Shown: positions 21,289 to 41,300 of the stretch, piece by piece
Layout: each line of letters opens with the position of its first letter
Numbering within the stretch: position 1 is the first letter of the stretch
Assembly: GCA_049679725.1 (NCBI GenBank)
Contig: JBAUGM010000160.1
Coordinates: 1-51,955 of the forward strand
Source of the DNA: Tepidisphaeraceae bacterium
Lineage (GTDB): Bacteria; Planctomycetota; Phycisphaerae; Tepidisphaerales; Tepidisphaeraceae
DNA length: 51,955 bases
Reading direction: 5' to 3'
Translations under genes and position numbers: made by a program
Notes under the pieces: generated by a model
The model's input: the letters and a program-made list of their open reading frames with translations, nothing else
Database searches by the model: none
Told to the model about the DNA's origin: nothing

Positions 21289-21918
21289 TCACCGGATGAA
21301 TAACTCATCGACGGACGGCTGCAACTCCACACCACCAGGAACCTCGCCGCTCTCGGCAATGTACGAATTCAGTCCAGCCTTTGAGATCGTCTCCATGACA
21401 TGGGCGTCGACCCTCTCAGCTTCCTGCCAAGCCAAGAGTCGCTTAGCCTCATTCCCGCTCACAGAAATCTCGACCTGAAGAAGCCCGGGCATTTCTGATT
21501 TCGCCCACGCGAGGGCTGTCTGTGGATCGGTGACCACGACCTTGGGACGGCGCGCCCGGACGCCAACAACGCCAGCAGGAAGGCAAACTGAACGGCGCCG
21601 ACCGCCTTCTTCCATGAGCCGTTGCTCAAGCCAGCGCTGAAGCTGTGCACCATAGCGCTCCGTCAAATACCGCTCACGGCGTTCGGCTTTTCGAAGCTCA
21701 CCGGCAGCCCACGCTTCCACCCTACGACGGTAGACCCGTAATTCCGTCACTGCTCTGACGAGCCAGTTGGCGTCACGTTCGCTGCTGATCGAGAATCCCA
21801 ATTGGCTCGCGGGGTCCGGGAGTTCGAGTTCGTCCGCATCCACGCCAGATGGCGGCGATTCCGGCTCGACCAGTGCATCATCGTTCGCCGGGTGACATTC
21901 CGCATCTCTGAGCGACAT
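21289..21918 (-). CDS. gam: Mu Gam-like host-nuclease inhibitor protein
   Basis: 209 aa. A coiled-coil N-terminal half (DANWLVRAVTELRVYRRRVEAWAAGELRKAE...) is followed by GGRRRSVCLPAGVVGVRARRPKVVVTDPQTALAWAKSEMPGLLQVE. This parallels Mu Gam GGKVKTANLVTGDVSWRVRPPSVSIRGMDAVMETLERLGLQRFIRTK. Confidence 0.6.
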   Translation of the reverse strand: MSLRDAECHPANDDALVEPESPPSGVDADELELPDPASQLGFSISSERDANWLVRAVTELRVYRRRVEAWAAGELRKAERRERYLTERYGAQLQRWLEQRLMEEGGRRRSVCLPAGVVGVRARRPKVVVTDPQTALAWAKSEMPGLLQVEISVSGNEAKRLLAWQEAERVDAHVMETISKAGLNSYIAESGEVPGGVELQPSVDELFIR

Positions 21919-24359: not shown

Positions 24360-26069
24360 ATGGCGCAAATGTTTCCGTCGGTACTGCCCGAGGATGTCTT
24401 ACGCGATCCTCGGCGGAGGGCAGAGCGAGACTTCTTCGAGCTATGCCGGAATGCGCTCCCTGCTCAGGTCGTCGTGATCTACGGCTACCGTTGGTTAGAC
24501 CCACTCGACCGTGGCCGCGCAATCGAGGGCGAAGCGGATTTCGCCATCATCGACCCCCGTCGAGGCATCCTGGTTTTGGAGTTGAAGGGCGGGGTCATCC
24601 GGCGGGACGCCGCAACCGGTAAGTACTTCAGTCGCGAAGTGCGCGGAACTCGAGAACACGAGATCAAAGATCCCGGCTGGCAAGCAGCCAACAGCCGCCG
24701 CGCAATCGTCAACAAGGTGGAGGCCACCAAGCCTTGGCGAACTTGGCGCCAACGAGAGCGAGAACGAGCACGAGCGCCATTTCCAGCGGGCTTCGGCGTT
24801 GTGTTTCCTGATTGCACCGCCGAGGGTCACGTAATCGCCGGCGACATCACCCCGCAGAATCTCGTCGATGCGACGCACTTGGAAAGCCTCGACAAGCGAC
24901 TCGACGAAGTCTTCAAGACGCTTGTGGGAAAGAACCCGTGCCTGCCGCTGGCCAAAGAGGCAATGGGCGCCTTGCTCGATGTCCTCGCCTACGACGGGAC
25001 GCTTCGGCGACCGCTAGCGGTACAAATGGCAGACGAAGACCGACAACTCCTTCGCGCCACCAACAGTCAGCTCGTCATTCTTGGTGTACTGAGGCTGCAC
25101 GCACGGGTACTCCTCCGCGGAGGCGCGGGCACCGGTAAGACGATCCTCGCGATCGAGAAGGCACGCCGGTCGGCGGCACAGGGGCGCCCGACGCTATTTC
25201 TCTGCTACAACGAACTGCTTGGCGAGTTCCTCAAGACGAGTGAAGCTGCAAAGGCCGGGGCGCACGTGATGACGTTCCACTCACTGTGTCGCCAGATCAG
25301 CGGGCTCCGTCTCGCGCCAAGTGGCCCTGACGACGATGTGGCACGTCGTAGGTACTTTGACGAAGAACTCCCCGCCGCGGCCTACGAGCGGCTCATAGAG
25401 GAAGATCCCGCACAGCGATATCAAACCGTCGTCATCGACGAGGCACAGGACTTCCTGCCGACCTGGTACGACATCATCGGGCACCTTTTGGAGCCGGACG
25501 CGGCGGGAGAGCCCCCGGAGTACTTCATCGCCCTTGATGAAGATCAACTGCCGCCTGGACGGCTACACCGACTACCGGACCAACTAAGTCCGTTCCCGCT
25601 CGACGAAAACCTCCGGAATACGCGATGTATTTTCACAGCCACCACTCCACTTCGTCGCGGTGGTCCACTCTCCTGCGCCGGGCCAGACGGTGAGCCACCT
25701 AGAAAGGTGCGCTGTCAAACCGCCGAGGAGCTCGAAGCTGCGGTCGGCAAGGAACTCGATCACTACATCGAGAGCGGCAGGGTGAAACCAGAGGACATCG
25801 TCGTGCTCGTCGGGACGTCTTTAGCTCGTTCTCGCCTAGCCCTGAGCGGCCGCGCGGGGCGCTACCGCCTCGCCCAAGTCGCCGGAGGACCGACGACGAT
25901 TCAGATCGAGTCAGTCTGGCGGTACAAGGGTTTGGAGAAATGTGTCGTCATCTTGGCCGAGGTTGACGACATCGCATCCAACCGGCAAAGCCTTTACGTC
26001 GGGGCCACGCGCGCCAAGCTTCGGCTGAGCATCATCGGGACAACCCAGTTACTGCAGCAGTTCGCGTGA
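24360..26069 (+). CDS. NERD-like PD-(D/E)xK nuclease domain fused to UvrD/Rep-type SF1 helicase/ATPase
   Basis: Start is ATG 24360, with GGGAGG 9 nt upstream, inside track ORF 24234..26069. N-terminal GEADFAIIDPRRGILVLELKGG (D...ExK). LLRGGAGTGKTILAIEKA (Walker A). TVVIDEAQDF (motif II). C-terminal VWRYKGLEKCVVILAEV...LYVGATRAKLRLSI (UvrD_C-like). Confidence 0.75.
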   Translation: MAQMFPSVLPEDVLRDPRRRAERDFFELCRNALPAQVVVIYGYRWLDPLDRGRAIEGEADFAIIDPRRGILVLELKGGVIRRDAATGKYFSREVRGTREHEIKDPGWQAANSRRAIVNKVEATKPWRTWRQRERERARAPFPAGFGVVFPDCTAEGHVIAGDITPQNLVDATHLESLDKRLDEVFKTLVGKNPCLPLAKEAMGALLDVLAYDGTLRRPLAVQMADEDRQLLRATNSQLVILGVLRLHARVLLRGGAGTGKTILAIEKARRSAAQGRPTLFLCYNELLGEFLKTSEAAKAGAHVMTFHSLCRQISGLRLAPSGPDDDVARRRYFDEELPAAAYERLIEEDPAQRYQTVVIDEAQDFLPTWYDIIGHLLEPDAAGEPPEYFIALDEDQLPPGRLHRLPDQLSPFPLDENLRNTRCIFTATTPLRRGGPLSCAGPDGEPPRKVRCQTAEELEAAVGKELDHYIESGRVKPEDIVVLVGTSLARSRLALSGRAGRYRLAQVAGGPTTIQIESVWRYKGLEKCVVILAEVDDIASNRQSLYVGATRAKLRLSIIGTTQLLQQFA

Positions 26070-26082
26070 CTGGGGGTGGACA

Positions 26083-29000
26083 ATGGAGACCGTCGACTTC
26101 GGAAATCTGTGCCGGCAAGCGAACGAATGGAGGCGTCAGGCTGCGGATCTCGACTTCCTCGGAGAGATCGCGCTTCCACAGGCCGAGCTGGAGCAACTCC
26201 TTAAGATCCTCGGACGTTTCCACAAGCGCGTCGATGAACCGGAACTGTCGTTCGCCCTAGCCGTTGGAGCCGTCAATTGGGCCTACTGGCGTGGCGTCGA
26301 CGAGGAGGAGTCAAAAGGATTCCGCCATTCATTCATGACCCATTCCTTGGGCTACAGCGACCTACGCGAATGGGATCGATTGTGGGGGCCAGCGATTGAG
26401 CGAGCAATCTGCGACTGGAGTAAGCAACCCCCGAGGTTTGGCACATACCGATACGTCGGCCTCATCCTCCGGCACGCCGGAGTACCGCACTCGAAAATCC
26501 CAAGACTCGCGCAATTGTTGCAAGATATCGATCGCAACGTCGGTTGGCCAAACGTACCCGCGGCAAGAGACACCCAGATTCAGGGATACGTCGGTGCCTT
26601 CTTTGGCACGGGTTGTATCGGTGAGCATCTCGCGAGTGAGGCTGGACTCGCATACCTGCGAAGCCTCTGCGCGGACCTTATGCTCTTGCGATCCCGTTCA
26701 CCGCAGTCGGTCGACGACCTGCCGGGGTATCGGCCGGGTCTATTGCCTGCACTTCTGGCACATCTCGAATTGGGACCGCGGGTCCCGGCACCACAGTCTT
26801 TCCAACTGCCATACGTCATATTTGATCCCTCAAGCGGCCGCATCGAGCTTGTTTTCGACGAACGCCTCATTCGGCGGCGAGACCCGATTCAGTGCGACCA
26901 AAGGGAGAGGCGCCTCTTCGACGCCAGACTCGACCTTGGCCCTGGCGGCATTGAACCCGCGTCGACCTATAGTGGGCGTCTTCCAGACGGGCGTTCGTGG
27001 TCGGTGAAGGGCTGGCGCTATACGGATAGTGGCGCCTGGGCTCTGTTTCGGGCGGATGGGCGTCTGGTGACCACCCATTCACATGGCGACGCGGTGTCGA
27101 CCGGAGATTATCTGCTCGCGGTGATCCCAAGCCTCAACCCGACCGAGCTTTGGCCCGACGCCGCGGATGACGGGGAGCGGTTCCTTCCAGACGGCACCGA
27201 GTGCAGACTTTGGCATATCCGACTCAGCGAAGGTGACGACGGAAAGCTTCCCAACCTTCATGTGACCACTTCTGTCCATCCGTGGCTGGAGGTCGTGAAT
27301 GCGGGCCCCATGACCCGCTGGACCGAACTTGATGGAGTCTGCCCCGAGCAACCCATCGTTAACGTTGGGGGCTGGACGAATCGCAATAGCAGGCGATTCC
27401 GGCTAACGCTGACGTCCGGGGTCGACCAACGCGACCTGCACCCTTCGATATCTTCCGACGGCACGACCAGCATCGTGCTCTCAGAGCTGTCTGTTGGCGT
27501 CGTGGCTGAACTGAGCCTCGTGCCCGTCGGGTTCCAGCATGGTCCGCGAGTCACGCAAACCATGCGCGTGGTCCGCTTCCCCGGCCGCATCGATGTCGCA
27601 GACGGTCTATGGCCACTGGATGATGAAGCCAGTCTGATGATGAGCGTCAGTGATGGTCTGCGCGTGGAGGCGAACGACGACCTGCAATTAGACGCACATG
27701 AACGACGAGTTAAGGTGCTTGTGCCGCCCAACACGAATTGGGCCTCGCTGCGGGCCCTCAAGGGCGACGCGTCACTCTCGCTGCGATTCCCTGTCCGGCG
27801 TTGTTCGTTCTCAACCTCAGACTCGCCCGTTGTACCGGCAATATTCGACCGGGCCCTCCTGCGAGAGATGTGCGATCTTGGCGCCTCGTGCCGAACATTC
27901 ACAGTCTCGGCCATACCCGGCTGCACGGTGGACCTGATTGCCCGCGACCGAGAGGGTAACAGCCGTGTGTGGCGACGAGGCCTTCGGCTGGGTAGCAACG
28001 GCCGGCTGGAATTGCCTGGTACAGAGCTGGTCGATGTCACTCGCAACGAAGCTGGTATTCTGGAGATCGTCGTCAATTGTGACGGCTTCGAGGTCGCCAC
28101 AGGGGCGTTGTTCGTCGAACCAGTGGTTACCGATCTGAACACCGGCCCCTGGCCTCCCACGGTCGACCGTTACCTTCAACTCCTTCGTCAACCTCTTGTC
28201 ACTCCAGAAGGCCTCGATGTGGTGGCCGCAGCGCCGTCACTCTATCGTCACGCGAGAGTCATCGCCGCAGCGGACTGCGCATTCGGACTGTCGCCTCTGT
28301 CGCCGAGCGCGTTCCGGCTTCCCGTCAGCGCAGCGGATTGGATCGACCGATGTCGGGACCTGTTGTCCAATCAGCCACACACGCCGGGACTGAGCGCCGC
28401 GACCTGGAAGTCGGAGTTACTCGCCTGGCTCAAGGCGGCGCCATTGCCAATCTGTCCGGTGCGGTGGGAGGCGGCCGTCCGCTCGCTGATTGCCGAGATC
28501 GACCGGAAGATCGACATCTCCGGGCCCCTCTCTCGGCTACTTGCTGGAATAGCCGATCCCTCGGTGCCGGACGGGCTAGTTCACGGCTGGAAGTGCTATG
28601 TCGATGCCGAGCATCGGCTGCAACACGGCGATCAGAGAATCATCCAAGCCAACTCCTATTTCTCGGCTGCTGCTCGTGGGACGCTGCCCTGGAGCGCGAT
28701 CGCTGAACGCCTCTCCGCGTGGGCATTGCTGCGAGCAGGCGCCGTGCCGCAATTCGCGAAGTCGGTTGCGACGCTCACGCCGACAGTCGATTGTCCTGGA
28801 TTAACTTGTACTCTTCGCGCCGTCTCTTCGCTCTTAGCTCTGAAGCGGCCGGACGATGCTTCCCACGAACCCGGAGGGCTTGAACTGTCGCCTCGCGAGG
28901 ATGACCGTTTGCTCGCGTCAGCAATCGAAGGCAATCCCGGTGCTTGGTCACGTGCTGCGGAGAAGTGCTGGCTCTCCGCTTGGCTTGGTTGGCGTTGGTC

Positions 29001-29139
29001 CATCATAATGGGCCCGAACGGAGAGCATCGCGAGGAATACCGGGGCGCCGCCCTAGCACGCGTTGAAGATGTACCGATGCGCGGCCGTGAGCTCCTGTCC
29101 GTGGAGCTTCGATCAGGTGTACCTCATCCCATTAGCTAG
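26083..29139 (+). CDS. Large hypothetical protein (1018 aa), no recognisable domain
   Basis: ATG lies 13 nt after the previous stop, preceded by GGGGTGGA. The frame is continuous and coding-like. Trp/Arg-rich. I recognise no catalytic motif. Confidence 0.7.
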   Translation: METVDFGNLCRQANEWRRQAADLDFLGEIALPQAELEQLLKILGRFHKRVDEPELSFALAVGAVNWAYWRGVDEEESKGFRHSFMTHSLGYSDLREWDRLWGPAIERAICDWSKQPPRFGTYRYVGLILRHAGVPHSKIPRLAQLLQDIDRNVGWPNVPAARDTQIQGYVGAFFGTGCIGEHLASEAGLAYLRSLCADLMLLRSRSPQSVDDLPGYRPGLLPALLAHLELGPRVPAPQSFQLPYVIFDPSSGRIELVFDERLIRRRDPIQCDQRERRLFDARLDLGPGGIEPASTYSGRLPDGRSWSVKGWRYTDSGAWALFRADGRLVTTHSHGDAVSTGDYLLAVIPSLNPTELWPDAADDGERFLPDGTECRLWHIRLSEGDDGKLPNLHVTTSVHPWLEVVNAGPMTRWTELDGVCPEQPIVNVGGWTNRNSRRFRLTLTSGVDQRDLHPSISSDGTTSIVLSELSVGVVAELSLVPVGFQHGPRVTQTMRVVRFPGRIDVADGLWPLDDEASLMMSVSDGLRVEANDDLQLDAHERRVKVLVPPNTNWASLRALKGDASLSLRFPVRRCSFSTSDSPVVPAIFDRALLREMCDLGASCRTFTVSAIPGCTVDLIARDREGNSRVWRRGLRLGSNGRLELPGTELVDVTRNEAGILEIVVNCDGFEVATGALFVEPVVTDLNTGPWPPTVDRYLQLLRQPLVTPEGLDVVAAAPSLYRHARVIAAADCAFGLSPLSPSAFRLPVSAADWIDRCRDLLSNQPHTPGLSAATWKSELLAWLKAAPLPICPVRWEAAVRSLIAEIDRKIDISGPLSRLLAGIADPSVPDGLVHGWKCYVDAEHRLQHGDQRIIQANSYFSAAARGTLPWSAIAERLSAWALLRAGAVPQFAKSVATLTPTVDCPGLTCTLRAVSSLLALKRPDDASHEPGGLELSPREDDRLLASAIEGNPGAWSRAAEKCWLSAWLGWRWSIIMGPNGEHREEYRGAALARVEDVPMRGRELLSVELRSGVPHPIS

Positions 29140-29152
29140 AAACGGAGTTCGG

Positions 29153-30508
29153 ATGAACATGCAGCCACCGCCACCCACTCAACCGTCGCAACGGACACTC
29201 ATTGACGCAGTCAGGCAAGGCGAGAAGAAGAAGATCCCGCTCATTCAAGCGTTGAAGCTCACCCGCATCGATCGTGGGAACGTTGCAGACTTCATCGGCG
29301 CGATGAACGAAGTCCCCGGCCCCTTGGCAGCAGAACTTATTGCGCTCGCATGGAGCGACCTTGACGTTGAGTGTCGCCTTTGCGTGGTTCGCGAATGGCT
29401 CGACGGCAAAGACAAAGAGCAACAGGCGGGCGGCTATCATGCACTCTCCGCAAGGCTCCTGATATCCGACTCAGGCGCCGCCATGGACATCCTCGACCGA
29501 GTTGCGAAGCTCGCGGCGGGGTCACCTCCCTGCTTGAGACGGGTCATCTCCACCACCCGTTCGGAATGGGTCGGCACCACCCCAGAGCAAGCGAGGTTTC
29601 AACAGGTCGACCCCTTAAACCTGACCACGAACAGCCGCTTAATGCTCCTGGATTGGCTCTGCGACTGCTGTCCGGCAGAGCTCCGGCCGTCCGATGATGA
29701 GCGTCGGCGGACGGAACTTCAGAAGCACGCCGAGGCAAGGGCGGCTCTCGTTGCAGCTTGGCTCGAGCAGCTGCAAACTAAACAGTTATCAGAGCCTGTC
29801 GCACTCGCCATCGAGCGAAGTCTGGCCCGGCTCCGGCCAAAGGCGACCATCGTCCCGACTGCTCAGCCGGCCCGGCTGGAGATCGAACAGCCGCCCGACA
29901 CGAAGACCTCGACCTCACCCGTTCCCACTCCGCAGAGAACGAGCACAACCCCGCCGCAGGAGGCGGAGACGAACGACATGCTTCGCGAGGTCTTCAGCTC
30001 GATCAGACGCGTGTTTCAAAGGGAATCAGACCTGCATCGCCGCGAACTTCGGTCTGTCGAGTCCGAGTTAGTAAGTGCGAAGGCACAACTGGAGCGATCA
30101 GAACGCGACGCCGCGGCCTATCGAAACGCGAACGCCAAGGCGACGGAGCGCCTGTCAGAATTGGACGAGGAAATGCGAGGGCTCCTGGATGCGCGAGAGA
30201 GGACTGACAAGGAGTTGTCAGAGGCGCGTGAGAAGCTCGTCATCGTTAGCGCGGACCTAGACGCCGAGCGGCGCCAGAAGCAGGCCTTTCGCGATGAAAG
30301 TCACGAGGCCGTGTCAAGAGAAACGCAACGCGAGCGAGACCGTTTGCTGGCGCAGCTCGGGCAGCGGATCGGGAACATTGTTGAGGGTTACCGGGAGATC
30401 CGTGCCCGGGGGCCGCTTCCCGAAGGCACACCCACGATGGTGGGCGACATGATGGACGAGTTATTGTCACGGCTTGAAGCGGCAGGCGTACGTTTCAGGC
30501 GTGAGTGA
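29153..30508 (+). CDS. Coiled-coil protein (helical N-domain, P/T/S-rich linker, long charged coiled coil)
   Basis: Start is ATG 29153 (AACGGAG upstream), 13 nt after the previous stop; track ORF 29063..30508 overlaps the upstream gene. Linker QPPDTKTSTSPVPTPQRTSTTPPQEAE. Coiled coil ELVSAKAQLERSERDAAAYRNANAKATERLSELDEEMRGLLDARERTDKELSEAREKL.... Confidence 0.65.
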   Translation: MNMQPPPPTQPSQRTLIDAVRQGEKKKIPLIQALKLTRIDRGNVADFIGAMNEVPGPLAAELIALAWSDLDVECRLCVVREWLDGKDKEQQAGGYHALSARLLISDSGAAMDILDRVAKLAAGSPPCLRRVISTTRSEWVGTTPEQARFQQVDPLNLTTNSRLMLLDWLCDCCPAELRPSDDERRRTELQKHAEARAALVAAWLEQLQTKQLSEPVALAIERSLARLRPKATIVPTAQPARLEIEQPPDTKTSTSPVPTPQRTSTTPPQEAETNDMLREVFSSIRRVFQRESDLHRRELRSVESELVSAKAQLERSERDAAAYRNANAKATERLSELDEEMRGLLDARERTDKELSEAREKLVIVSADLDAERRQKQAFRDESHEAVSRETQRERDRLLAQLGQRIGNIVEGYREIRARGPLPEGTPTMVGDMMDELLSRLEAAGVRFRRE

Positions 30509-30523
30509 TTCCCAGGGGACTAA

Positions 30524-32002
30524 ATGGCTATCGGCATCGATTTTGGCACTACTAATTCTGCGGTGGTTTACAACCGAAACCAGTTGCTTGATGAGAGCGA
30601 CGAGCGGCCTATGCCTTCGCTCGTTGCGATAGACCCGCTAACAGGTAGCACGCTCGTCGGTCACGACGCCCGGAAGAAGCGGCATGACCTGGCTCGCGGC
30701 TCGTGGCACGTGGTCAGCTCTGTCAAGCTCGCACTATCTCATGATCGGGCGATCGCGGAAAGGCAGGGAAGCAAGCTCAATAGCACCGACATCTCAGCGA
30801 TCCTGTTCGACGAGCTTCGACAGCGGTCCGATCGATTGTTCGGCGCTGGCAGAGCGAAGGAAGCCGTCGTCAGCATCCCCATCGGATTGCGGGCGGGTGC
30901 CCGACGGAGGGTTCGTACGGCTGCCGAGCGAGCCGGAATTAAGATCTTGGAGTTCGTCTCAGAGCCCACTGCCGCATTTCTGGCATGTCGTGACCAACTT
31001 CCCGACACTGAACGTGTGCTCGTGTTCGACTGGGGTGGGGGGACGCTGGACGTGTCCGTGCTTCAGATCGAGGACGGCGCTGTGCATGAACTGGCGACCG
31101 CCAGTCTTCTCCAAGCTGGCGACATTATCGACGAGCTCATAGCCGAGCACATTCATGAGACCCTCACCCAAGAGGATTTCGATCGAACGCGAATGCCACC
31201 GAAGCAGTACGATCGGATTCTGATTGAAGCCGAATCGGCGAAGTGCGCGTTGACCGATGCGGAAGAAGCGCTGATTTTCCTGCCGGATTACCTCGGTCGA
31301 GACCACAAGTTCAAGCTTGACCGCGGTGCCTTGGGAGCACTCACCCAGCCGATTGTCGAGGCGTGCGTCAAGGTGGTTGCGGACGCGATCACGACGGCCC
31401 GGAGAGTAGGCGGTGATGCAAAGCTCGACCACATTGTACTCGTTGGCGGCAGCAGCAGGTTGTGGGGAATCGGGCCCAGGTTGCGAGAAGCTTTCATTGA
31501 CGTTGACGTTTTCGTGCCGAGCCGCCCCCAGTGGGCGGTTGCCCAAGGTGCGTCAGTTCTAGCCGAGGAGCTTAGTGGCAAGGAGAGGAGCTCCGTTTAT
31601 CGTTTGAACCACCCTGTGTATCTGCGACTAAGCGATGGGACTCTGCTGCCGTTGGTCCGCGCTGGTGACCGCTTTGACGGCAAGTATCGACGATACCTGC
31701 TAGGCGTAATTGAAGACACAGAGCACGCGCAGCTTGTATTTGCCGTGCCAGATGGTCACGGCAATGGCATCCTCGGCGGCATGCCCCAAGTCCGGTCCGT
31801 CGACTTTCTTTCCGTGCCGATCCAAGGACTTCCATTCGAGCAACTTAGGCTGGAGGCGAGATTGACGCCGGAACTGACCTTGGAGGTACGAGCCCAAACC
31901 GAGAAGGCAGATCCATACGCCAAGGAACACTGGACACACTGGGAGTACGAACAGCTTATGTTCTCCTACGGTCTCGGTGCCGGAACTGGAGGGGTACGGT
32001 GA
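30524..32002 (+). CDS. Non-canonical Hsp70/DnaK-like (actin-fold) ATPase
   Basis: 492 aa. MAIGIDFGTTNSAVVY (phosphate-1). VLVFDWGGGTLDVSVLQI (phosphate-2). HIVLVGGSSRLWGIGPRL (adenosine motif). The divergent ~120-aa C-terminal region is much shorter than a DnaK substrate-binding domain plus lid. Confidence 0.8.
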   Translation: MAIGIDFGTTNSAVVYNRNQLLDESDERPMPSLVAIDPLTGSTLVGHDARKKRHDLARGSWHVVSSVKLALSHDRAIAERQGSKLNSTDISAILFDELRQRSDRLFGAGRAKEAVVSIPIGLRAGARRRVRTAAERAGIKILEFVSEPTAAFLACRDQLPDTERVLVFDWGGGTLDVSVLQIEDGAVHELATASLLQAGDIIDELIAEHIHETLTQEDFDRTRMPPKQYDRILIEAESAKCALTDAEEALIFLPDYLGRDHKFKLDRGALGALTQPIVEACVKVVADAITTARRVGGDAKLDHIVLVGGSSRLWGIGPRLREAFIDVDVFVPSRPQWAVAQGASVLAEELSGKERSSVYRLNHPVYLRLSDGTLLPLVRAGDRFDGKYRRYLLGVIEDTEHAQLVFAVPDGHGNGILGGMPQVRSVDFLSVPIQGLPFEQLRLEARLTPELTLEVRAQTEKADPYAKEHWTHWEYEQLMFSYGLGAGTGGVR

Positions 32003-32442
32003 CTGGGCGTCAGCAGATCGAACAGGGAATCGTCCGACCGGCGCCGACCTTCGGCGACGTTCGATCAAACGTGACCGTATGCTCCAACCTCTTCCCGCGG
32101 TCACCGGAGATCTTGGAGCCCGAGCGGGACGTGGCATTCCGTTGCCGCGTCAGGGGTGCGATCGCACTTCGTAACATCGTGCCACCGGGCATTATCGACT
32201 CGATGTCAGGCAAGCACGGAATAGTGAAGCTATCCGAAGCAGATCGGGCGGCAGGTTTCGACGGAACGCTATCGTACGTCGTCTTCGCGCTGCTCCCAGA
32301 GCAGGTGCAAGAACTGCACGCATTCCGGTGCATCGACTGCGGACGCTCGACTGTCAGCGTTTGGTTCGAGAAGGGGCAAGTTCAGCGGCGATTCGTCACA
32401 TGCATGTGTCAGCGCCCAGGCCGGGGAGAGGAATCACGATGA
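31999..32442 (+). CDS. Small protein with C-terminal Cys cluster (possible zinc ribbon)
   Basis: 147 aa. GTG 31999 overlaps the Hsp70-like stop (GTGA), and its own stop overlaps the next ATG (ATGA). C-terminal FRCIDCGRSTVSVWFEKGQVQRRFVTCMCQ (CxxC ... CxC). Confidence 0.5.
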   Translation: MTGRQQIEQGIVRPAPTFGDVRSNVTVCSNLFPRSPEILEPERDVAFRCRVRGAIALRNIVPPGIIDSMSGKHGIVKLSEADRAAGFDGTLSYVVFALLPEQVQELHAFRCIDCGRSTVSVWFEKGQVQRRFVTCMCQRPGRGEESR

Positions 32443-35400
32443 TTGATCCGTTCGAGATGTGGCGAAAGCTCACAGGATCTTATCACTCTTATCTGAGCGA
32501 GACCTTCCCCGTTCACGCCTCGGAACCACGCCTTCGCGAACTCCTGCATTCGGCGATCCGCCGGGAGAACGCCGTTTGCAAGCCACCTCTCGTCTCGATG
32601 ATTCCGGCATATGCGACGGCGCTCACACCCGATCAATTATTCCGCAACGCGTCGCCGCCGCGCCTGCATGCCCAGCTCCGGCGGCTTTCTCCGCGCGAGT
32701 TTGATCCCGGCCGCCCGCTGTACGTGCACCAAGTCGAAGCTATCGAACGAATCCAATTAGGCCGGAACGCCGTCGTCGCGACGGGCACCGGCTCGGGAAA
32801 GACCGAGGCATTCCTCCTTCCTATCCTCGACCACTGCGTCCGTACGCGCAACAAGGGCATCCAGGCGATCTTGGTCTATCCCATGAACGCCCTTGCGAAC
32901 GACCAGCTAGACCGTCTCCGAGCGCTACTTGGCGACAGCGGCATCACGATCGGCCGTTACACAGGTCAGACTCCCGAAAACGAGGAGGACCTGGACGAGG
33001 ACACACGGAAGAATGCCAAGCCCTTCGAGCGGGCGACACGAGAGCAGATCCGCCAGCAGCCCCCGCAGATACTGCTGACCAACTTCGCGATGCTGGAGTA
33101 TTTGCTCCTACGACCGAGCGATCAAACGATCTTTAAGGATAGCAGCGTCCAGTTCGTGGTGCTGGATGAAGCTCACTCCTACCGAGGGTCGCAGGGGATC
33201 GACATCTCCCTTTTGATGAAGCGTCTTCAGTTGAGGTTTCCCAAAAAGGTTCAGTTCATCCTGACGTCAGCAACTCTTGGAGATCCCCGAGATGCCGGCA
33301 ACAAGGACCGAATTGCAAATTATGCGTCCGAGCTTTCCGGCGCCGAGCTCGCACCCGAAGATGTGGTGGGCGGATACACGGTGGATCCGTTCGAAGGCGT
33401 CGCACGCGACGAGTTGACGAAAGATGCGATTGCACGCCTCGCGAATCTGTCGATCACGCAGGTCGTGGATGCAGTCGCCTCCAACGAGCGGACGCGTTCG
33501 CTTTTGCAAAGCGTGGCCCTTCCGATTGAAAGCGGTGCGTCGGGCGTAGACACGCTCTATGCCTCCCTCCGGAAGCTCGCGCCGCTGCATCGGTTTTACT
33601 GTGCCCTCAAGGAAGGGCCCAGCACGGTTGACGCGCTGGCCCGCAACCTATCGGGACCAATTCCAGCGGCTTCGGCTGACGATAGCGAGATCCACGCGAC
33701 TATATCCCTGCTCGCGGCTGCATCGCTCGCGATCCCGGCGGACGGTCGCACGCCGCCTCTCTTGGCCATCCGTCTTCATCACTTCTTCCGTGGATTTGGC
33801 GGCGCGAGTGTGCTGCTGGATAGCGTGGACACGAGAGTGGTCGTCAAGAAGCTCTATTTGGAGCGAAAGGCGGTGGACGACATTCCGGACCCGCACTCCG
33901 GTGAAGAACCCACCGGTCGCGCGCTCGTCGCCCTCTTCACTTGCACCCACTGTGGCATGCCCGTGGCAGGCGTGGAAAAAGAGAATGACACGTGGAAGAC
34001 GCCGCTTTCGAATCGCTCACAGCGGGACCTCGACCTCTTGACCTGGCTGGAATTTGAGCAGCTCGAGGGAGACGAGGATGTAGAAGGGACCGACGGATTT
34101 GACCCTAACTACATGTTCCTGTGCACAGAGGAGTCATGCCGTGCGGTAGGCGAAGGAACGCCCGCGTCGTGCGGACATTCTGGCCAACTCCGCCTCCTGC
34201 GTTTACCACAGGCCGATGCCCAAGGCCTTCGCCGATGCCCGTGTTGTAACGGCGAGCGCCGCCCCTACCCCTCGGTATTGCGCGACTTCGTTGTTGGGGA
34301 AGATGCACCAACGGCGTTGCTTGCGGAAGAAATCCTCAGATGCCTTCCAGAACAGCCGGACTCCCGCTCGAAGCCAGCTGGCGGGCGACAGCTGATCGCG
34401 TTTAGTGACGCCCGGCAACGGGCAGCGTTCTTCTATCCGTACTTGGCGCGTACAAGCTGCGAGCCTGCGTATGTTCAACCGTTGATCGCCGCGGCGCGCC
34501 AACTAGAGGATGATGGGGACGTGACGACACCCAAGAGGATTGTGGAGGCGGCCACGCAGATCGTATTGAATCAGCCGCGCGTGCTCGTCCGCCGCATCGA
34601 AGGCGACATTGAGTATTACGAGCATCTAGCCAAGAAGCCCACGAGCGAGGACCTGGCGGACATCCGCGAGAGTCTGGCGGCTATCCTGTACGAACAACTT
34701 GGAGCGACGGGACGGATGCGGACGAGACTTCCGGGCTTGTGCTTGCTCGGAGCAAGGTTTGACATTGACGACGACTCGCTGGGCGATGCTCAACGCCGAG
34801 TTCCGGAGTTGTTCGGCGACGAACGGGCCGGTCGAGACACAGTCAGTCGACTTCTGAACACCCTCATTCGAACGCAAGCAGTTGAGTTCTGGCCCAGTCA
34901 GGTGGACCGACGCAAGATTCTCGGTCTGGCTGAAGGCCCGACGCTGGTAACGGTGCATCGCGGGGCTCGCTCGTACGTCGAACGCCACCAGATGCTGCAA
35001 TGGAATTCGATCAGACGCAGCATACGTGGATGGATCATTCGTCAGGCCCTCAGCCTGCGAGAAGGTGACCCTTCCGCGGACTCGACTGCCACTGCCGTGT
35101 TGGACAAGGTTTGGGACTGGATGCTGGACGCGGGCGTCCTTCAGGAGCACTCCCAACACCCAGGCGAGTTTCGGCTCCCGGCGAAACGGATTCTCGCGAC
35201 AACGCAAGGGCCATGGTTCCGTTGTGATCGGTGCGGGGCAGTGACCCTCCACCTAATGAACGGCACCTGCGAGATGAAGAGCTGCCGGGGCACCCTCCAC
35301 GCCATTAGCAGAGAGGCACTCAAGCAGGAGCACGCTGACAGTCATCGGGTGAAGCGCTTCGTGCAGAGGCCCTTACCTCTCGCAGTCCGAGAGCACACCG

Positions 35401-37259
35401 CTCAGATCTCACTGGCTGAAGGGAAGCGCATTCAACGTGACTTCATGAACAAGGACGTGAATGTGCTCAGCAGTTCGACAACGTTCGAGATGGGGGTCGA
35501 TGTGGGTCAGCTCGAGGCAGTGCTACTTCGGAACGTACCGCCCACTGCCGCGAGCTATGTTCAGCGTGCAGGACGTGCAGGACGTCGGCGGGTGGGCGCC
35601 GCTCACGCCGTGAGCTACGCGCGTCTCATGCCGCACGAGCAGCATCATTATCATCGTCCGCACGACATCGTCGGGGGCTCGGTTCCTGTGCCGGTCGTGT
35701 ACCCCAAGAACGAACGACTCACCCAGCGACACATTAATGCGTTGCTCCTGTCGGCATTTCTTGCTCACCACGGCATGCCGGTCGATGACCCACCGCTACA
35801 AGACTTTTTCCCTTTGTCCGAGACAGCACTGGACGGAACGTCACCGGCTGAGCGATTCGTCAAGTGGTGCCAGACGCTGACCCCCAAAGTATGCGGAGAA
35901 GTGGAGCAGTTAGCGAAACGGGCGGGAATGAGTGCCGATGCCGCGGTAACCGCGTCAGCGACCTCCATGTTCGACCCAGCCGGACCCTGTGTTTGGCGGA
36001 GGGGACTTTTGGACCCTGTTAACGCGTTCGAGAACGAGCGGCGCAGGCTTAACGATGAGAAGGCCGAGCTCGAACGAGAGCGCAAAAGCAAGCAAGCGGC
36101 TGCAGTGTTTGCAAAGCTTTCTCGCATTGATTCGCTGATCTCGCAGCAGATGGGCGAACGGCTCATTGGGACGCTGTCCTCTTACAGCTGGCTTCCGGCC
36201 TATGCATTCCCCCAAGATGCGGTTCAGCTGCTCGTGCTCGACCCCAACTATCAGTCAGCGTTGAAATTGGAGCGTGATCAGGAGCGCGGAATTTCCGAAT
36301 ATGCTCCTGAGAGCGAGATCATCGCAGACGGCAAGATGTTCACGAGTGTAGGGATCAACCTGCTCGGTCGAGCTCCTAATGTCCGACGGTTCCGTTTCTG
36401 TGAGGCAACCCGGCGCGTGCGGATTGGACTCGATGAGGATGAACTCAAACGCCAGCTCCCCAACGTCGGTCACCGTCCTCCGAAATCGGGCCAGTTCGTG
36501 CTCCCTTTAGGCTTTCTCACGAGTATCGAAGATAGGGGTAGCCAACCGAACCTCTATCGTCTCCGACCGCCAAGCAATTCAGAACTGTTTGTGGTCGATT
36601 CGCTCGACGAATCCGAGTTCGAGAGCCACGGAAAGCTGCCGGGAGTGACGACAGGTATCTGCCGCAACGCGCAGCTCTTCACCGCAAATCTGGGTCGGTC
36701 GGGCCAAGGATTTTGGCTGTGTGGCAACTGCGGCGCCGCGTCTGACGGCGTGAGGCTGGAGCTCGCTCACGACCGACCATTTGGTGGGAACAAGTGCAAA
36801 GGGCGACAGGAGCGAGTGGCCTTGGCCAGCATCTTCCGAACTGACGTCCTCCAGGTCCGCTTTCCCGCCGTCTCAACCCCTAGCGTGATTGGCGATGCTG
36901 GACGAACCTTTTGGACTACTCTCGCGGCAGCGATTGCCAGTGCAGGATGCGAGCTCCATCGAATCGATCCGTCGGATCTTGAGGTGAGCTATCGCTCGAT
37001 CTCCGACGCAGACCATCGAGGCGAACTTCTGCTGTTCGATAACGTCCCTGGAGGCGCGGGGTTCGTGCAGCGAATCCGCGAAGACTTGCCGGCCGTTCTC
37101 TTCGCTGCCATCGGAGTGCTACAGAACTGCCCCAACACGATCGACTGCGGCATGCAATCGTCTTGCTACGCGTGCCTGCGTACTTATCGCAACCAGTTTG
37201 ACTGGGAGTTCCTGTCGCGTGAGGTTCCGCTTCCTTGGCTTGCCGCGATCTGCGCTTGA
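32439..37259 (+). CDS. Very large DEAH-box SF2 helicase with C-terminal DUF1998/MZB zinc domain (DruE / MrfA-YprA-like)
   Basis: Start is ATG 32439 (GGAGAGGA upstream) inside track ORF 32328..37259; 1606 aa. NAVVATGTGSGKTEAFLLPIL (motif I). FVVLDEAHSYRG (DEAH). ILTSATLG (motif III). SSSTTFEMGVDVG...VQRAGRAGRR (motifs V/VI). Several inserted Cys pairs (CTHCG, CPCCNGE, FRCDRCG...CEMKSC, LCGNCG). Terminal FDNVPGGAGFVQRI...CPNTIDCGMQSSCYACLRTYRNQ is typical of DUF1998. Confidence 0.85.
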   Translation: MIDPFEMWRKLTGSYHSYLSETFPVHASEPRLRELLHSAIRRENAVCKPPLVSMIPAYATALTPDQLFRNASPPRLHAQLRRLSPREFDPGRPLYVHQVEAIERIQLGRNAVVATGTGSGKTEAFLLPILDHCVRTRNKGIQAILVYPMNALANDQLDRLRALLGDSGITIGRYTGQTPENEEDLDEDTRKNAKPFERATREQIRQQPPQILLTNFAMLEYLLLRPSDQTIFKDSSVQFVVLDEAHSYRGSQGIDISLLMKRLQLRFPKKVQFILTSATLGDPRDAGNKDRIANYASELSGAELAPEDVVGGYTVDPFEGVARDELTKDAIARLANLSITQVVDAVASNERTRSLLQSVALPIESGASGVDTLYASLRKLAPLHRFYCALKEGPSTVDALARNLSGPIPAASADDSEIHATISLLAAASLAIPADGRTPPLLAIRLHHFFRGFGGASVLLDSVDTRVVVKKLYLERKAVDDIPDPHSGEEPTGRALVALFTCTHCGMPVAGVEKENDTWKTPLSNRSQRDLDLLTWLEFEQLEGDEDVEGTDGFDPNYMFLCTEESCRAVGEGTPASCGHSGQLRLLRLPQADAQGLRRCPCCNGERRPYPSVLRDFVVGEDAPTALLAEEILRCLPEQPDSRSKPAGGRQLIAFSDARQRAAFFYPYLARTSCEPAYVQPLIAAARQLEDDGDVTTPKRIVEAATQIVLNQPRVLVRRIEGDIEYYEHLAKKPTSEDLADIRESLAAILYEQLGATGRMRTRLPGLCLLGARFDIDDDSLGDAQRRVPELFGDERAGRDTVSRLLNTLIRTQAVEFWPSQVDRRKILGLAEGPTLVTVHRGARSYVERHQMLQWNSIRRSIRGWIIRQALSLREGDPSADSTATAVLDKVWDWMLDAGVLQEHSQHPGEFRLPAKRILATTQGPWFRCDRCGAVTLHLMNGTCEMKSCRGTLHAISREALKQEHADSHRVKRFVQRPLPLAVREHTAQISLAEGKRIQRDFMNKDVNVLSSSTTFEMGVDVGQLEAVLLRNVPPTAASYVQRAGRAGRRRVGAAHAVSYARLMPHEQHHYHRPHDIVGGSVPVPVVYPKNERLTQRHINALLLSAFLAHHGMPVDDPPLQDFFPLSETALDGTSPAERFVKWCQTLTPKVCGEVEQLAKRAGMSADAAVTASATSMFDPAGPCVWRRGLLDPVNAFENERRRLNDEKAELERERKSKQAAAVFAKLSRIDSLISQQMGERLIGTLSSYSWLPAYAFPQDAVQLLVLDPNYQSALKLERDQERGISEYAPESEIIADGKMFTSVGINLLGRAPNVRRFRFCEATRRVRIGLDEDELKRQLPNVGHRPPKSGQFVLPLGFLTSIEDRGSQPNLYRLRPPSNSELFVVDSLDESEFESHGKLPGVTTGICRNAQLFTANLGRSGQGFWLCGNCGAASDGVRLELAHDRPFGGNKCKGRQERVALASIFRTDVLQVRFPAVSTPSVIGDAGRTFWTTLAAAIASAGCELHRIDPSDLEVSYRSISDADHRGELLLFDNVPGGAGFVQRIREDLPAVLFAAIGVLQNCPNTIDCGMQSSCYACLRTYRNQFDWEFLSREVPLPWLAAICA

Positions 37260-37454: not shown

Positions 37455-38381
37455 ATGCAGTATAGGTTTTCGGGCCACGAGACGTTTCCTTGCCGCTACG
37501 CATGGCTGCCCAAGGCTTTTGGCGAAATCCGCCAGAACCCGAAGGCGCTGGCTGACGACCAAGAGGCAATGATCGCGCTCGGCGTGGGGAAGAACATGGT
37601 GCGGGCTATCCGCTTCTGGCTGCAGATCGCTGGCATGGCGGCCGCAGGAAGCGGCGGCAGCTTTACGCCAACACCATTCGGAAAGGCCGTCTTGAGCCCG
37701 AGGGGAGAAGACCCTTTCCTCGAAGACATCCGCACCCTGTGGCTAATCCACTGGCAGATCGCGACGCACGTCGAGCAACCCCTCTTCGCTTGGGAATTTC
37801 TGCTCAACAGGTGGCCGCATCCGGAGTTCAGTCGCTCCGTCGCCCTGGCCGCCTTCAAGCACGAGGCTCGTCTGCTCGGTAAGGACCTCTCGGAAATCAC
37901 ACTCGAGCAGCACTTCGACGTGTTCCTCCACTCGTACGTCCCGACGCGCGGGCGTAAAGGCGAGGTCTTGGAGGACAACCTCGACTGTCCGCTCGTCGAG
38001 CTGGAATTGATCCAGCGAACCGGCGAGCGACCCACGGGAAAGCAAGGTCACAGGGAGGCCGTCTATGCCTTCAGGCGCGAGGAAAAGCCTGAGATTACGC
38101 CGCCGTTGTTCATCTACTGCCTCGACGATTTCTGGCGTCGATGGCGGCCGTCAGAGCAGACGCTCACACTAAAAGACGTGGCACTTGCGCCGGGAAGCCC
38201 AGGGCAGATATTTAAGCTTCCCGAGGATGACGTACGCGACCGCTTGGAGCGGATCGGCTCGGATTCGGAGCAGCTGTTTGGCTACCGCGAGTCGGCATCT
38301 CTCCAGCACGTCATCAGAAATCGGCAGCCAGAGGGATCGCTACTGGGACGTCTCTACGAGAGGGAGCCGGCACATGCCTGA
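37455..38381 (+). CDS. sspB: DUF4007-family protein (SspB-like)
   Basis: 308 aa. The N-terminus MQYRFSGHETFPCRYAWLPKAF...GVGKNMVRAIRFWL matches my memory of the conserved DUF4007 start (F-SGHETF-R--WL-K). Followed by a large ATPase and a PAPS-reductase gene, as in Ssp loci. Confidence 0.7.
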   Translation: MQYRFSGHETFPCRYAWLPKAFGEIRQNPKALADDQEAMIALGVGKNMVRAIRFWLQIAGMAAAGSGGSFTPTPFGKAVLSPRGEDPFLEDIRTLWLIHWQIATHVEQPLFAWEFLLNRWPHPEFSRSVALAAFKHEARLLGKDLSEITLEQHFDVFLHSYVPTRGRKGEVLEDNLDCPLVELELIQRTGERPTGKQGHREAVYAFRREEKPEITPPLFIYCLDDFWRRWRPSEQTLTLKDVALAPGSPGQIFKLPEDDVRDRLERIGSDSEQLFGYRESASLQHVIRNRQPEGSLLGRLYEREPAHA

Positions 38382-41300
38382 TGCCCGGATCGCTGATCTG
38401 TTTCAGGTACGAACCCGATTCCTTCGCTCAGCCCACCTTGAGCGCGATTTCGAAGACGCTTCGGCGGTGACCGGGTACGTCGTCACCCCGCAGGCGCAGA
38501 ACTACCTGAATCGCCTCGCCTCCGGGCTTGCACCAACATCCGGGCAGCGCGCATGGCGCGTCACAGGTGACTATGGCGTCGGGAAGTCGTCGTTCGCGCT
38601 CGTGCTTGCCCACCTCTTGGGTGGGCGGGCGCGGAGCCTCCCGCCGTCGCTCCGCGATGCGGTTGACCTCTCGCACCTTGGTGCCCGGCGCCCGAAACTC
38701 GTCCCGGTGCTGGTCACCGGTTCGAGAAGCCCGGTCGCGCGGTCGACCCTCCAGGCGCTTGAGCGATCGCTCGACAGGCTTCACCTCCGCGGCCGGCGAC
38801 CGAAGGTGCTTGAGCGGATCCGACAGATGCTTAGCGCGCCCGAGAGCGCGGCCACATCGGACACTGATTTCGTCCAGATTGTTGAAGAGGCGTCACAGTT
38901 TGTCCGCGAGGGCGAACATGGCGTTGGGCTCCTCATAATTTTGGACGAGCTTGGGAAGTTTCTCGAATACGCGGCGCTTCACCCCGACCGGCAGGACATC
39001 TACCTCCTCCAGACGCTCGCGGAGGTAGCCGCTAGGAGCGGGAACACGCCGCTGGTCGTTGTCGGTCTGCTCCATCAAGGTTTCAACGCCTACGCTGACA
39101 GGCTGTCTGAGACTGCCCAGCGCGAATGGCAGAAGGTCGCAGGCCGCTTCGAAGAGCTCATCTTCGATCGGCCGCTCGACCAGACCGCGGCCCTCATCGC
39201 CGACGCACTTAACCTTCCCGTCGAGCGACTGCCACGTGCGATCTCGCGGCGAGCACGGGAGGACATGGCGTCTGCCGACTCACTCGGTTGGTACGGCCCC
39301 GGCAGGAAAGTTGGTGAGCTCACAGCGCTCGCCGCGAGTCTCTACCCGCTCCACGCAACGGTTCTCCCCGTGCTCACTCGGCTCTTCGCTCGCTTCGGTC
39401 AGAACGAGCGTTCCCTGTTTAGTTTCCTCCTGTCGAACGAGCCCTTTGGCCTGCAAGCGTACGCAGAGAGAACGGCAGCGCCTGATCGGTTCTACCGAAT
39501 ACATGACCTCTACGACTACGCGCGAGCGACCTTTGGTCACAGACTCAGCCTCCAGAGCTACCGGAGCCACTGGAACCTCATCGAATCGGTGGTGGAGAGC
39601 TTTCCGGTCGAACACGCGGTCGAGTCGCGGGTTCTAAAGACCGTCGCGATGCTGAACCTTATCGACGACCAGGGGCTTATTGCCACACGCGAGGCGATCG
39701 AACTCGCCACGTCGACAGGCGACAACGATCGCCTCCGCGTGAGAGACGCGGTAGCCAAGCTCCAGAAGAAGCGAGTCCTTTATTTCCGCGGCACCGCCGG
39801 TGGTTACTGCCTGTGGCCGCACACAAGCGTCAACATCGAGAAGGCGTACACGGAGGCCATGAAGGCCGTGGGGCCAATCTCCTGCGTCTCGACACTCATC
39901 GCCGACGAATTCGACACTCGACCTGTTGTCGCCCGTCGTCACTACATCGAGACGGGAAATCTCAGGCACTTCGAGGTGCGGTGCGTCGCGGTGAATGCCC
40001 TCGAAAGTGCCGGACGGGCAGAAGGTCGCGGCGCCGCCGACGGGCTCATTCTCTTGCCGCTGTGTGAGACCGCGGAAGACAGGAAGCTCGCCCTCGCGTT
40101 CGCCCAGTCGGAACCGATGACACGCGAGCCTGCGGTGCTCTGCGCCGTGCCAAAGCCACTTGAGATGCTCCAGTCGATGGTGCAAGAAACCCAGCGATGG
40201 AACTGGGTGTCGCAGAACACCCCGGAGCTCATCCACGACCGCTACGCAGCCGAAGAGGTGTCGCGGCAACTAGCGAACGCGCGCCGCGTGCTCCGAGACC
40301 GTATTCAGGATCTCATAGGGCTACGCACCTCTTCCGGCCGGACCGAGCTCGATTGGTTCCTCCAGGGAAAGCCCGTCCGCATCGCTACGAGCCGGGACCT
40401 CCTCTCGACAATTTCTGATGTGTGTGACGAGGTCTACGCCAGCGCGCCACGAGTGAAGAATGAACTCGTGAACCGGCGGGATCTTAGCACCGCCGCCGCT
40501 TCCGCGCGGATGCGACTCATCGAGCGGCTCTTCTCCTCAGCCGACCAACCACTGCTCGGACTGGATTCGGCAAAGAAGCCGCCCGAGATGTCCATGTACC
40601 TCTCGGTACTGCATCGCGGAAAGATGCACGTGAGCAGGCGGGACGGCCATGAGGTGGTAGAGCCTGGAAAATCGGATGACCCTCTAAACGTAAGGCCGAC
40701 GTTCCGGCGTATGCTTTGGATCCTGCGAGAGAAGCCGGACTTGCGGGTATCGGTATCCCGTTTGTTAGACGAGCTGCGGCGCCCGCCGTTTGGGATTCGC
40801 GACGGCCTCTCGCCGCTCCTACTCGCGGTGTTCGCCGTCATCCACGAGCAGGACCTCGCACTATACGAGGATGGCGCGTTTGTCCGTGAGGTGACGGGAG
40901 AGGAGTTTCTCCGACTGACTAAGAATCCGGCGTCATTCGAGCTCCAATACTGCCGGGTGACAGGCGTCAGGGCGTCGGTCTTCGCACGGCTAGTCCGCGT
41001 ATTACAGCCCGAAGAAGTTTCGGACGACGAGCCGAACGTGCTCGACGTCGTCCGCCCGCTCTGTGTCTTCGCGGCGCAGTTGCCCCAGTACACCCAGCGG
41101 ACGCGGCAGATCTCCGAGCAGGCCCGGTCGGTCAGGGCCGCCCTCACTTCGGCCAAAGAACCGGCGATGCTCCTCTTCCGCGACCTGCCGCTCGCGTGTG
41201 GCCTAAAGCCGTTCGAGTCTCGCGGAGCCCCAGGGGGCGCTACCGTCCGAGGTTTCGTCTCAAAGCTTAAGCGTTCGCTAGACGAACTACGCGCGACCTA

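Follow-up and report, generated by a model that had tools for sequence, protein, structure and literature searches.

Does a six-gene operon that joins an Hsp70-type ATPase to a giant DruE-like helicase encode an anti-phage defence system, and which of its genes belong together? The operon lies at positions 24360-37259 of contig JBAUGM010000160.1 of a Tepidisphaeraceae bacterium (Planctomycetota; assembly GCA_049679725.1), whose first 51,955 nucleotides (nt) are hereinafter called the window. Its genes are designated g1 to g6. A preliminary description of this DNA had proposed the six genes as an undescribed defence system. We put the probability at roughly 60% that the operon encodes a nucleic-acid-targeting anti-phage system of the YprA-helicase class (Druantia/ARMADA/DISARM), in which an Hsp70 module gates a helicase/nuclease arm. 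The conserved unit is not the six genes. It consists of g3, g4 and g5 (hereinafter the trio) together with a helicase of the YprA family; g1 and g2 often accompany it but are optional members.

The six genes are tightly packed on the plus strand. Specifically, the g1/g2, g2/g3 and g3/g4 junctions have gaps of 13, 13 and 15 nt, and g4/g5 and g5/g6 share GTGA and ATGA, respectively, 4-nt overlaps that imply translational coupling. A purine-rich run resembling a Shine-Dalgarno (SD) sequence (GGAGG-like) lies ahead of each of the six starts, and the pattern of GC content at the three codon positions (GC1/GC2/GC3) is uniform over g1-g6, the small g5 included. A simple scan for internal promoters and terminators in the operon gave nothing above the shuffled expectation. 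Transcription as one unit is plausible. All gene coordinates in the preliminary description hold, and so do the labels it gave to the products: a NERD nuclease fused to a superfamily 1 (SF1) UvrD-type helicase (g1), a protein without recognisable motif (g2), a coiled-coil protein (g3), an Hsp70 ATPase with its nucleotide-binding motifs (g4), a Cys-cluster protein (g5) and a DruE-like DEAH helicase with a terminal MZB domain (g6).

The g4 protein matches Pfam HSP70 at 4.9e-42 and the NCBIfam HscA/DnaK models at ~1e-40, with NCBIfam bit scores far under the equivalog cut-offs (142 versus 709 for HscA). Among 23 g4 homologues, K68, E147, D169, T174 and the DFGT(T), DWGGGTLD and GGS (GGSS) loops are invariant or nearly so. 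On DnaK, the alignment of the family profile runs from residue 1 to ~465-498, corresponding to the nucleotide-binding domain (NBD) and the beta part of the substrate-binding domain (SBD-beta). Because g4 ends where the alignment to DnaK SBD-beta ends, it has no helical lid. It is a genuine lidless Hsp70, predicted from its motifs to be ATPase-competent. Like canonical DnaK and HscA, g4 has an NBD with all catalytic residues and a homologous SBD-beta; unlike them, it is ~490 amino acids (aa) long, lacks the helical lid and C-terminal tail, and is encoded in defence-type operons. Homologues number in the hundreds at ~33% identity, the closest coming from Planctomycetota. No J-domain (dnaJ) or grpE gene was found in the operon with Pfam or NCBIfam. 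Longer Hsp70 paralogues (604-634 aa) are present at four other loci (L029, L051, L059 and L083), in different gene neighbourhoods, and in L059 and L029 the gene upstream of the long Hsp70 is weakly related to the g3 family. These four loci may be further Hsp70-containing conflict systems.

Only two of the six proteins, g6 (as DruE) and g1 (as a NERD-helicase), are recognised by PADLOC (PADLOC-DB v2.0, 2023; match threshold E<=0.01). The g6 protein has GSGKT and DEAH motifs, several CxxC modules and a C-terminal MZB/DUF1998 domain, and Pfam identifies DEAD, Helicase_C and MZB. Its PADLOC matches are DruE1 (1.2e-167) and DruE3 (1.6e-162), at about one third of subtype-level bits (a true member, in relative L013, scores 1828 bits). 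The best PDB sequence matches are 9tu7, a 2108-aa DEAD/DEAH helicase (3e-64), and YprA 6znp (4e-26). BLASTP against the E. coli ATCC 8739 proteins (NC_010468.1) aligns g6 collinearly with DruE (161+122 bits) and with ArmC (140+102 bits), in each case as far as the MZB. The g6 protein ends 26 residues past its own MZB, leaving ~390-470 C-terminal DruE/ArmC residues unmatched; thus, g6 is without the C-terminal PLD/Vsr modules of described DruE and ArmC. In DruE this module is PLD in type III and inactivated Vsr in types I/II, and the type III-like branch is mostly without nucleases (Bell et al. 2025, PMC12458937). By these matches g6 is a DruE/ArmC-type YprA-family superfamily 2 (SF2) helicase with putative 3'-5' activity.

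The third protein of the trio, g5, has a conserved domain of ~100 aa that carries SNVxxxSNV[YF] at its N-terminus, followed by D44 and by a Cys knuckle (C111, CRC at C137). In an alignment of 19 g5-domain sequences, N24, S29, N30, D44, C111 and C137 are invariant or nearly so. The protein has no match in the PDB, Pfam or PADLOC, and we regard it as a candidate Zn-knuckle adaptor domain. Two forms of the domain are found: a stand-alone gene of 107-190 aa and, in DrmAB-type relatives, the N-terminal ~190 aa of a 775-856-aa GajB-like UvrD helicase (PADLOC GajB 9e-26). The fusion to the GajB-like helicase, present in at least 17 loci, points to physical coupling between the Hsp70 module and the helicase. 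A homologue search with concatenated g3N+g5 returned only five g3 homologues and no g5, not even the self-match. Genes resembling g5 are nevertheless called in L085, L088 and L095, and the g5 of the window may be missing from the predicted protein set of the record.

For g1, the PADLOC matches are RTasNERD-Hel (7.8e-44) and NERD+UvrD (4e-17), and the Pfam domains are AAA_19, UvrD and UvrD_C_2. The NERD residues E58/D60/E74/K76, Walker A (G254-K260) and Walker B (D360/E361) do not vary across an alignment of 10 homologues, consistent with a predicted NERD (PD-(D/E)xK) nuclease fused to a SF1 UvrD-like helicase.

Neither g2 nor g3 has a match in Pfam, NCBIfam or PADLOC. The g2 family is small, with 220 representative clusters among 1.84 billion proteins. 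An AlphaFold2 (AF2) model of g2 built from seven sequences has a mean pLDDT (predicted local distance difference test) score of 83.8 and shows about five beta-sandwich domains (240-680) flanked by two helical ones (1-230 and 690-1018). Foldseek against the PDB returned only Ig-like/macroglobulin arrays with a template-modelling (TM) score of ~0.1; no enzymatic fold was recognised, and the matches are uninformative on function. The AF2 model of g3 (pLDDT 77.7) is all-alpha, without beta strands. A helical-repeat N-domain (16-227) is followed by a disordered linker and a single helix of ~150 residues (271-418). Foldseek gave only weak HEAT/TPR/14-3-3-like matches (E > 0.007) and no significant structural neighbour. 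The preliminary description had looked to AlphaFold and Foldseek for the nature of g2 and g3: models were obtained, but neither protein has a significant structural match.

The survey of relatives defines the unit that is conserved. About 30 non-redundant loci with a full-length family member were collected from contigs encoding g4 homologues, a scan of GTDB genomes, a g2-anchored metagenome scan and a viral-contig scan, and their genes were labelled with local phmmer and jackhmmer; 28 loci had enough downstream sequence to be informative. The ~30 loci represent at least nine phyla: Planctomycetota, Bacillota, Desulfobacterota, Acidobacteriota, Spirochaetota, Synergistota, Actinomycetota, Cloacimonadota and Melainabacteria. 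They include that of the cultured strain Eubacterium coprostanoligenes ATCC 51222 (L007). The order g3-family coiled-coil protein, Hsp70, g5 domain is kept in every one of the ~30 loci. By jackhmmer, a g3-family gene stands directly upstream of the Hsp70 gene in 25-29 loci, and the g5 domain opens the gene directly downstream in 25, with no stray matches. A YprA-family helicase adjoins the trio in 26 of the 28 informative loci. The predicted linkage of the Hsp70-like gene with a DUF1998 helicase therefore stands, but the unit that is linked is the trio with its helicase and not the six genes.

The helicase partner takes three forms. A fused DruE-like gene of ~1600 aa is present in eight loci (the window, L001, L011, L034, L085, L087, L088 and L095), the DruE2/4 gene of a DruF4/DruL4 locus in one (L013, the 1828-bit match), and a DrmA + DrmB pair in 17 (e.g. 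L009, with PADLOC matches to DrmA at 4e-248 and DrmB at 5e-82). NERD helicases like g1 are found in 11 loci, at either end of the cluster, and g2-like proteins in 12, always upstream of the trio. All seven loci from the g2-anchored metagenome scan also have the trio and the helicase. A rough neighbour-joining (NJ) tree of the Hsp70s, without support values, does not follow helicase type, with the DrmAB-type locus L086, for example, grouping with the clade of the window. This discordance suggests recombination between module and helicase, consistent with a portable module.

Locus L013, from an Acidobacteriaceae metagenome-assembled genome (PNAR01000267, 827-15182), has the PADLOC type IV set of DruF4 (1e-145), DruL4 (9e-66) and DruE. 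The trio sits between DruF and DruL, and a C5 methylase adjoins. This gene set suggests that some annotated type IV loci contain unrecognised Hsp70 genes. Locus L086 (Phycisphaerales, 1545-19496) is DISARM-like and encodes, in this order, Dcm, HNH, Vsr, a g2-like protein, the coiled-coil protein, Hsp70, a stand-alone 107-aa g5, UvrD, DrmA, DrmB and PLD. Its Hsp70 and g2 are nearer to those of the window than are those of other DruE-like loci, and it belongs to the phylum of the window's closest relatives.

The flanks of the relatives are rich in known defence genes, a point that the preliminary description had put up for testing. Among 84 flanking proteins there are eight C5 methyltransferases, in seven loci, that score as DrmMII/DruM (best 2e-171). 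Vsr is found in four loci, and EcoRII, mad2/3/8, Hhe, Mokosh, JetC, pAgo and type I restriction-modification (RM) genes also occur. One of 80 matches on viral contigs is a family member (L099, from IMG/VR), the rest being giant-virus Hsp70s, and no full-length family member was found among PLSDB plasmids. Locus L099 (IMGVR_UViG_3300029305_008688, 8617-21413) has a DrmAB-type system with a NERD helicase and Dcm. In Fontivita pretiosa (L001; CP191258, 1074-18295), a homologous operon of six genes is falling into decay: two open reading frames (ORFs) take the place of g2, a DDE_5 transposase lies between g2 and g3, and a Transposase_mut insertion sequence (IS) lies within the helicase gene. The IS-interrupted Fontivita copy and the mobile/defence context are typical of accessory defence cargo.

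The setting in the window is of the same kind (Table 1). Left of the island lie metabolic genes, and at its border the GC content drops from ~0.66 to ~0.60. Segment 12603-24200 forms a mobile-element backbone. The tRNA-Arg 3' end is not repeated (as attR) anywhere in the window, which places the right end of the island beyond position 51955. The neighbouring phosphorothioation genes, a complete SspBCD and SspFGH set, give PADLOC matches to SspB (3.8e-113), SspC (E=0), SspD (3.9e-116), SspF (3.9e-213), SspG (1.3e-190) and SspH (E=0); sspA, for the cysteine desulfurase, is not visible in the window. The six-gene operon is cargo of a tRNA-Arg-integrated mobile island, and both the tRNA link and the phosphorothioation-type neighbour had been recognised in the preliminary description.

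Table 1. Genes of the operon and features of the surrounding island in the window.
Feature	Position	Strand	Remark
g1	24360-26069	+	569 aa; ORF open from GTG 24234
g2	26083-29139	+	1018 aa
g3	29153-30508	+	451 aa
g4	30524-32002	+	492 aa
g5	31999-32442	+	147 aa
g6	32439-37259	+	1606 aa
tRNA-Arg(TCG)	12603-12678	+	ARAGORN; left edge of island
Tyrosine integrase	12818-14236	+	Pfam Phage_integrase; adjoins tRNA-Arg
Helix-turn-helix (HTH) protein	16613-17794		Island gene between integrase and operon
DnaB_C-type helicase	17791-19407		Island gene between integrase and operon
Mu Gam-like gene	21289-21918	-	Island gene between integrase and operon
SspB-SspC-SspD + SspF-SspG-SspH phosphorothioation defence system	37455-51473	+	PADLOC; directly downstream of operon

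How might such a system work? In the mechanism that we propose, the effector arm would consist of g6, a DruE-type 3'-5' SF2 helicase with MZB that has lost the C-terminal nuclease module, and g1, which would supply a NERD nuclease and a SF1 helicase. The control arm would be the translationally coupled g3, g4 and g5, often with the g2 scaffold ahead of them. The three proteins would form a complex in which the ATP-driven clamp cycle of the Hsp70 acts on a built-in client, most likely the SNVxxxSNV[YF] N-terminus of g5, and the clamp would thereby hold or release the helicase-nuclease machinery. The g3 protein may serve as an adaptor or nucleotide-exchange-like partner, a role like that of the armadillo-repeat or coiled-coil exchange factors of Hsp70s, and g2 as an infection sensor or assembly platform. 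An infection cue would release the clamp, whereupon g6 and g1 would unwind and cut the invader DNA. DruE unwinds 3'-5' from 3' overhangs and has variable sensor subunits as partners, and in type III Druantia its partner DruH is an ssDNA-binding, ATP-regulated protein (bioRxiv 10.64898/2026.05.12.722862). By analogy, the type III DruE-DruH work fits this sensor-plus-helicase logic.

A wider proposal is that the trio, often with g2, is a portable ATP-driven switch that has been plugged repeatedly into DrmAB, type IV DruE and the nuclease-less g6, acting as an immune sensor or regulator with the g5 SNV N-terminus as its client. We hold this proposal tentatively, with the odds somewhat against it. 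If it is true, prokaryotes would have in this switch their first dedicated chaperone machine of the Hsp70 type with the role of immune sensor or regulator, and the loci would constitute a new widespread system family linking DISARM and Druantia mechanistically. Immune switches would then also include chaperone-type clamps, and the Hsp70 theme predicted for CoCoNuTs would be extended. The means by which the giant YprA-family helicases of Druantia, ARMADA and DISARM are held back from host DNA and activated on infection have come under study only in 2026 preprints, on type III DruH-DruE. An Hsp70 module wired to three helicase branches would be a mutable handle on that regulation (Hsp70 ATPase/cleft, g5 motif, helicase swap), and cultured hosts for direct testing are at hand in Eubacterium coprostanoligenes ATCC 51222, Thermosyntropha lipolytica DSM 11003 and Fontivita pretiosa.

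Several points weigh against an Hsp70-gated defence system of this design. The defence role is suggested by genomic context only. The six genes are not an obligate unit, since many relatives are without g1 and g2. In two informative loci, L005 and L018, no YprA helicase is seen in the sequence at hand; the former has a PLD nuclease, a UvrD helicase and a PAPS reductase, and the latter a SNF2 helicase and a DUF1156 methylase. The case for g5 as the Hsp70 client consists of its invariant N-terminal motif and gene adjacency. The roles given above to g2, as a candidate infection sensor or platform, and to g3, as a possible adaptor or exchange-like partner, are guesses from models that have no significant structural match. 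For the Hsp70-like protein CnuD, the CoCoNuT authors favour RNA binding over a protein clamp (PMC11090510), and by analogy nucleic-acid binding is an alternative role for g4.

The operon could also be a juxtaposition of independent units, for instance a NERD-helicase (g1) and a DruE-like helicase (g6), each standing alone, with an unrelated Hsp70 module. This would account for g1-like genes being at either cluster end or absent, and for the absence of g2 from about half of the relatives. NERD-helicases are known as accessories of other systems (the PADLOC name is DRT-associated), and unrelated systems are tightly packed in defence islands. In the window, however, the narrow gaps, the SD-like sites and the coupling overlaps at g4/g5 and g5/g6 all speak for one unit. 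Among the relatives, the gene immediately downstream of the trio is in every case a helicase gene, the fusion of the g5 domain to a helicase recurs in the many loci mentioned above, and every independently recovered g2 family member adjoins the trio. We thus consider independent units unlikely.

Decidedly improbable is a highly diverged member of Druantia I, II or IV, with g2-g5 being unrecognisable forms of DruA-D or DruF/DruG/DruL. The DruE-like g6 agrees with it, as do the presence of the same trio in the type IV locus and the position of g2, which stands where DruF would and has the size of the long DruF2 forms covering DruF+DruL (1011-1030 positions in the PADLOC profiles); that the diversity within types I/II has gone unappreciated is noted by Bell et al. 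2025 (PMC12458937). But the PADLOC models for DruA-D, DruM/F/G, DruL, DruH, DrmC/D/E and methylases have no match to g2-g5, and those for DruA-D/F/G/L/M/H have none among the g2-g5 homologues of L009, L011 and L013. Comparison of g2 with DruF and DruL (both of L013) and DruH (of E. coli) by hhalign gave probabilities of <=0.3%, and g2 was rejected as any of the three at the sequence level only. The all-alpha g3 model has no P-loop fold, so that g3 was also rejected as the inactivated McrB-like AAA+ protein (CnuB) of types I/II, the "type IV CoCoNuT" idea (PMC12458937). In L013 the trio is present besides DruF and DruL and not in their place, and across the relatives it is mostly paired with DrmA + DrmB. 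The g6 protein itself has the low score noted above and is without a C-terminal Vsr/PLD module.

Very unlikely is a role outside defence, as a DNA-repair/replication-restart module (a MrfA/YprA-type helicase with a chaperone) or in island maintenance: the YprA family does include the repair helicase MrfA (PDB 6znp match; PMC12458937), Hsp70s are classically housekeeping and the island has replication-type genes (DnaB_C helicase and Mu Gam-like), but the scores of g6 and its relatives place them with DruE/DrmA, in the defence branch, and not with MrfA, no mrfB-like exonuclease is present, the spread over phyla is sporadic, the g2 clusters are few (~220), RM, MADS, Hhe, Mokosh, pAgo and Wadjet genes prevail in the flanks, and IS insertions are breaking down one copy, a decay typical of accessory cargo.

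How, then, does an Hsp70-gated YprA-class system compare with known ones? No named system in PADLOC-DB v2.0 covers the gene set, and full-text literature searches, in which few subscription papers were covered, turned up no description of the Hsp70 trio with Druantia- or DISARM-type helicases, in agreement with the earlier claim that the combination is new. The nearest published case is CoCoNuT CnuD (PMC11090510); the only other relevant items were a GTPase/tubulin/Hsp70 conflict system (PMC7159879) and the sensing of host DnaJ by bNACHT25. The census of the YprA family defines ARMADA, BRIGADE and TALON and equates Druantia I/II with "type IV CoCoNuT" (PMC12458937). Hsp70 is never mentioned in it, nor in the PADLOC paper that defines Druantia type IV (Payne 2021, PMC8565338). 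The Hsp70 module looks like a previously undescribed, portable add-on to known anti-phage systems.

Druantia (types I-IV; Doron 2018) shares with the operon a giant YprA-family helicase with a CxxC-rich post-RecA1 insertion and a C-terminal MZB/DUF1998, and a multigene operon in a defence island on a mobile genetic element; L013 is a bona fide DruF/DruL/DruE locus with the same Hsp70 trio. The partners that distinguish the types are DruA-D (I), DruM/F/G (II), DruH (III) and DruF+DruL (IV), none of which is detectable in the window operon. The list of Druantia types in the preliminary description had omitted PADLOC type IV (DruE+DruF+DruL). Relative to Druantia, the window operon adds the Hsp70, a coiled-coil partner, a Zn-knuckle domain, a beta-sandwich scaffold and a NERD-SF1 helicase, and its g6 is without the C-terminal PLD/Vsr(-like) module and scores far below subtype level.

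DISARM, built on a DrmA + DrmB helicase/DUF1998 pair with the PLD nuclease DrmC and a DrmMI/DrmMII methylase, also has a YprA-family helicase, and in 17 loci the trio is followed by DrmA + DrmB. A C5 methylase matching DrmMII (2e-171) accompanies several of these DrmAB-type loci, and a PLD gene is present in L086. In contrast to the separate DrmA and DrmB of DISARM, the window has one fused 1606-aa gene, whose best DrmA match is 1.3e-20. No PLD or methylase was matched by Pfam or PADLOC in the window ORFs at 12.8-51.5 kb (small ORFs not exhaustively covered). The Hsp70, the coiled-coil protein, the g5 domain and the GajB-like helicase belong to none of the DISARM definitions.

ARMADA type II likewise combines a Druantia-like YprA helicase with a SF1 GajB/UvrD-like helicase bearing an N-terminal add-on (ArmD), TALON has a NERD nuclease, and both are cargo of tRNA-integrated mobile elements. 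The window operon is without the BrxHII-like ArmA, the PglX-like ArmB, TPR-CSD and TBP, and g6 is slightly nearer to E. coli DruE than to ArmC. The g5 domain was tried as the RelE-like N-terminus of ArmD and rejected (hhalign probability 0.05%).

A dedicated Hsp70-like NBD/SBD protein together with helical repeats and long coiled coils is a theme that the operon shares with a single kind of predicted defence system described so far, CoCoNuT type III, and Druantia I/II have been linked to CoCoNuTs (Bell et al. 2025, PMC12458937). CnuD joins the Hsp70-like NBD/SBD to HEAT-like repeats and has degenerate nucleotide motifs (Bell et al. 2024, PMC11090510). The nucleotide motifs of g4 are invariant, a difference drawn from the description of CnuD and not from its sequence, and the helical repeat and coiled coil are here in a separate protein (g3). 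The McrB-like GTPase CnuB, with its coiled coil, and the McrC-N protein CnuC of CoCoNuT type III have no counterpart here: AAA_5, McrB and DUF2357 (McrC) have no Pfam match in the operon. The operon thus falls outside every defined Druantia type, DISARM, ARMADA and CoCoNuT. Because the trio pairs with DrmA + DrmB, with DruE-like genes and with a type IV locus, the system is best seen as a variant within the Druantia/DISARM class.

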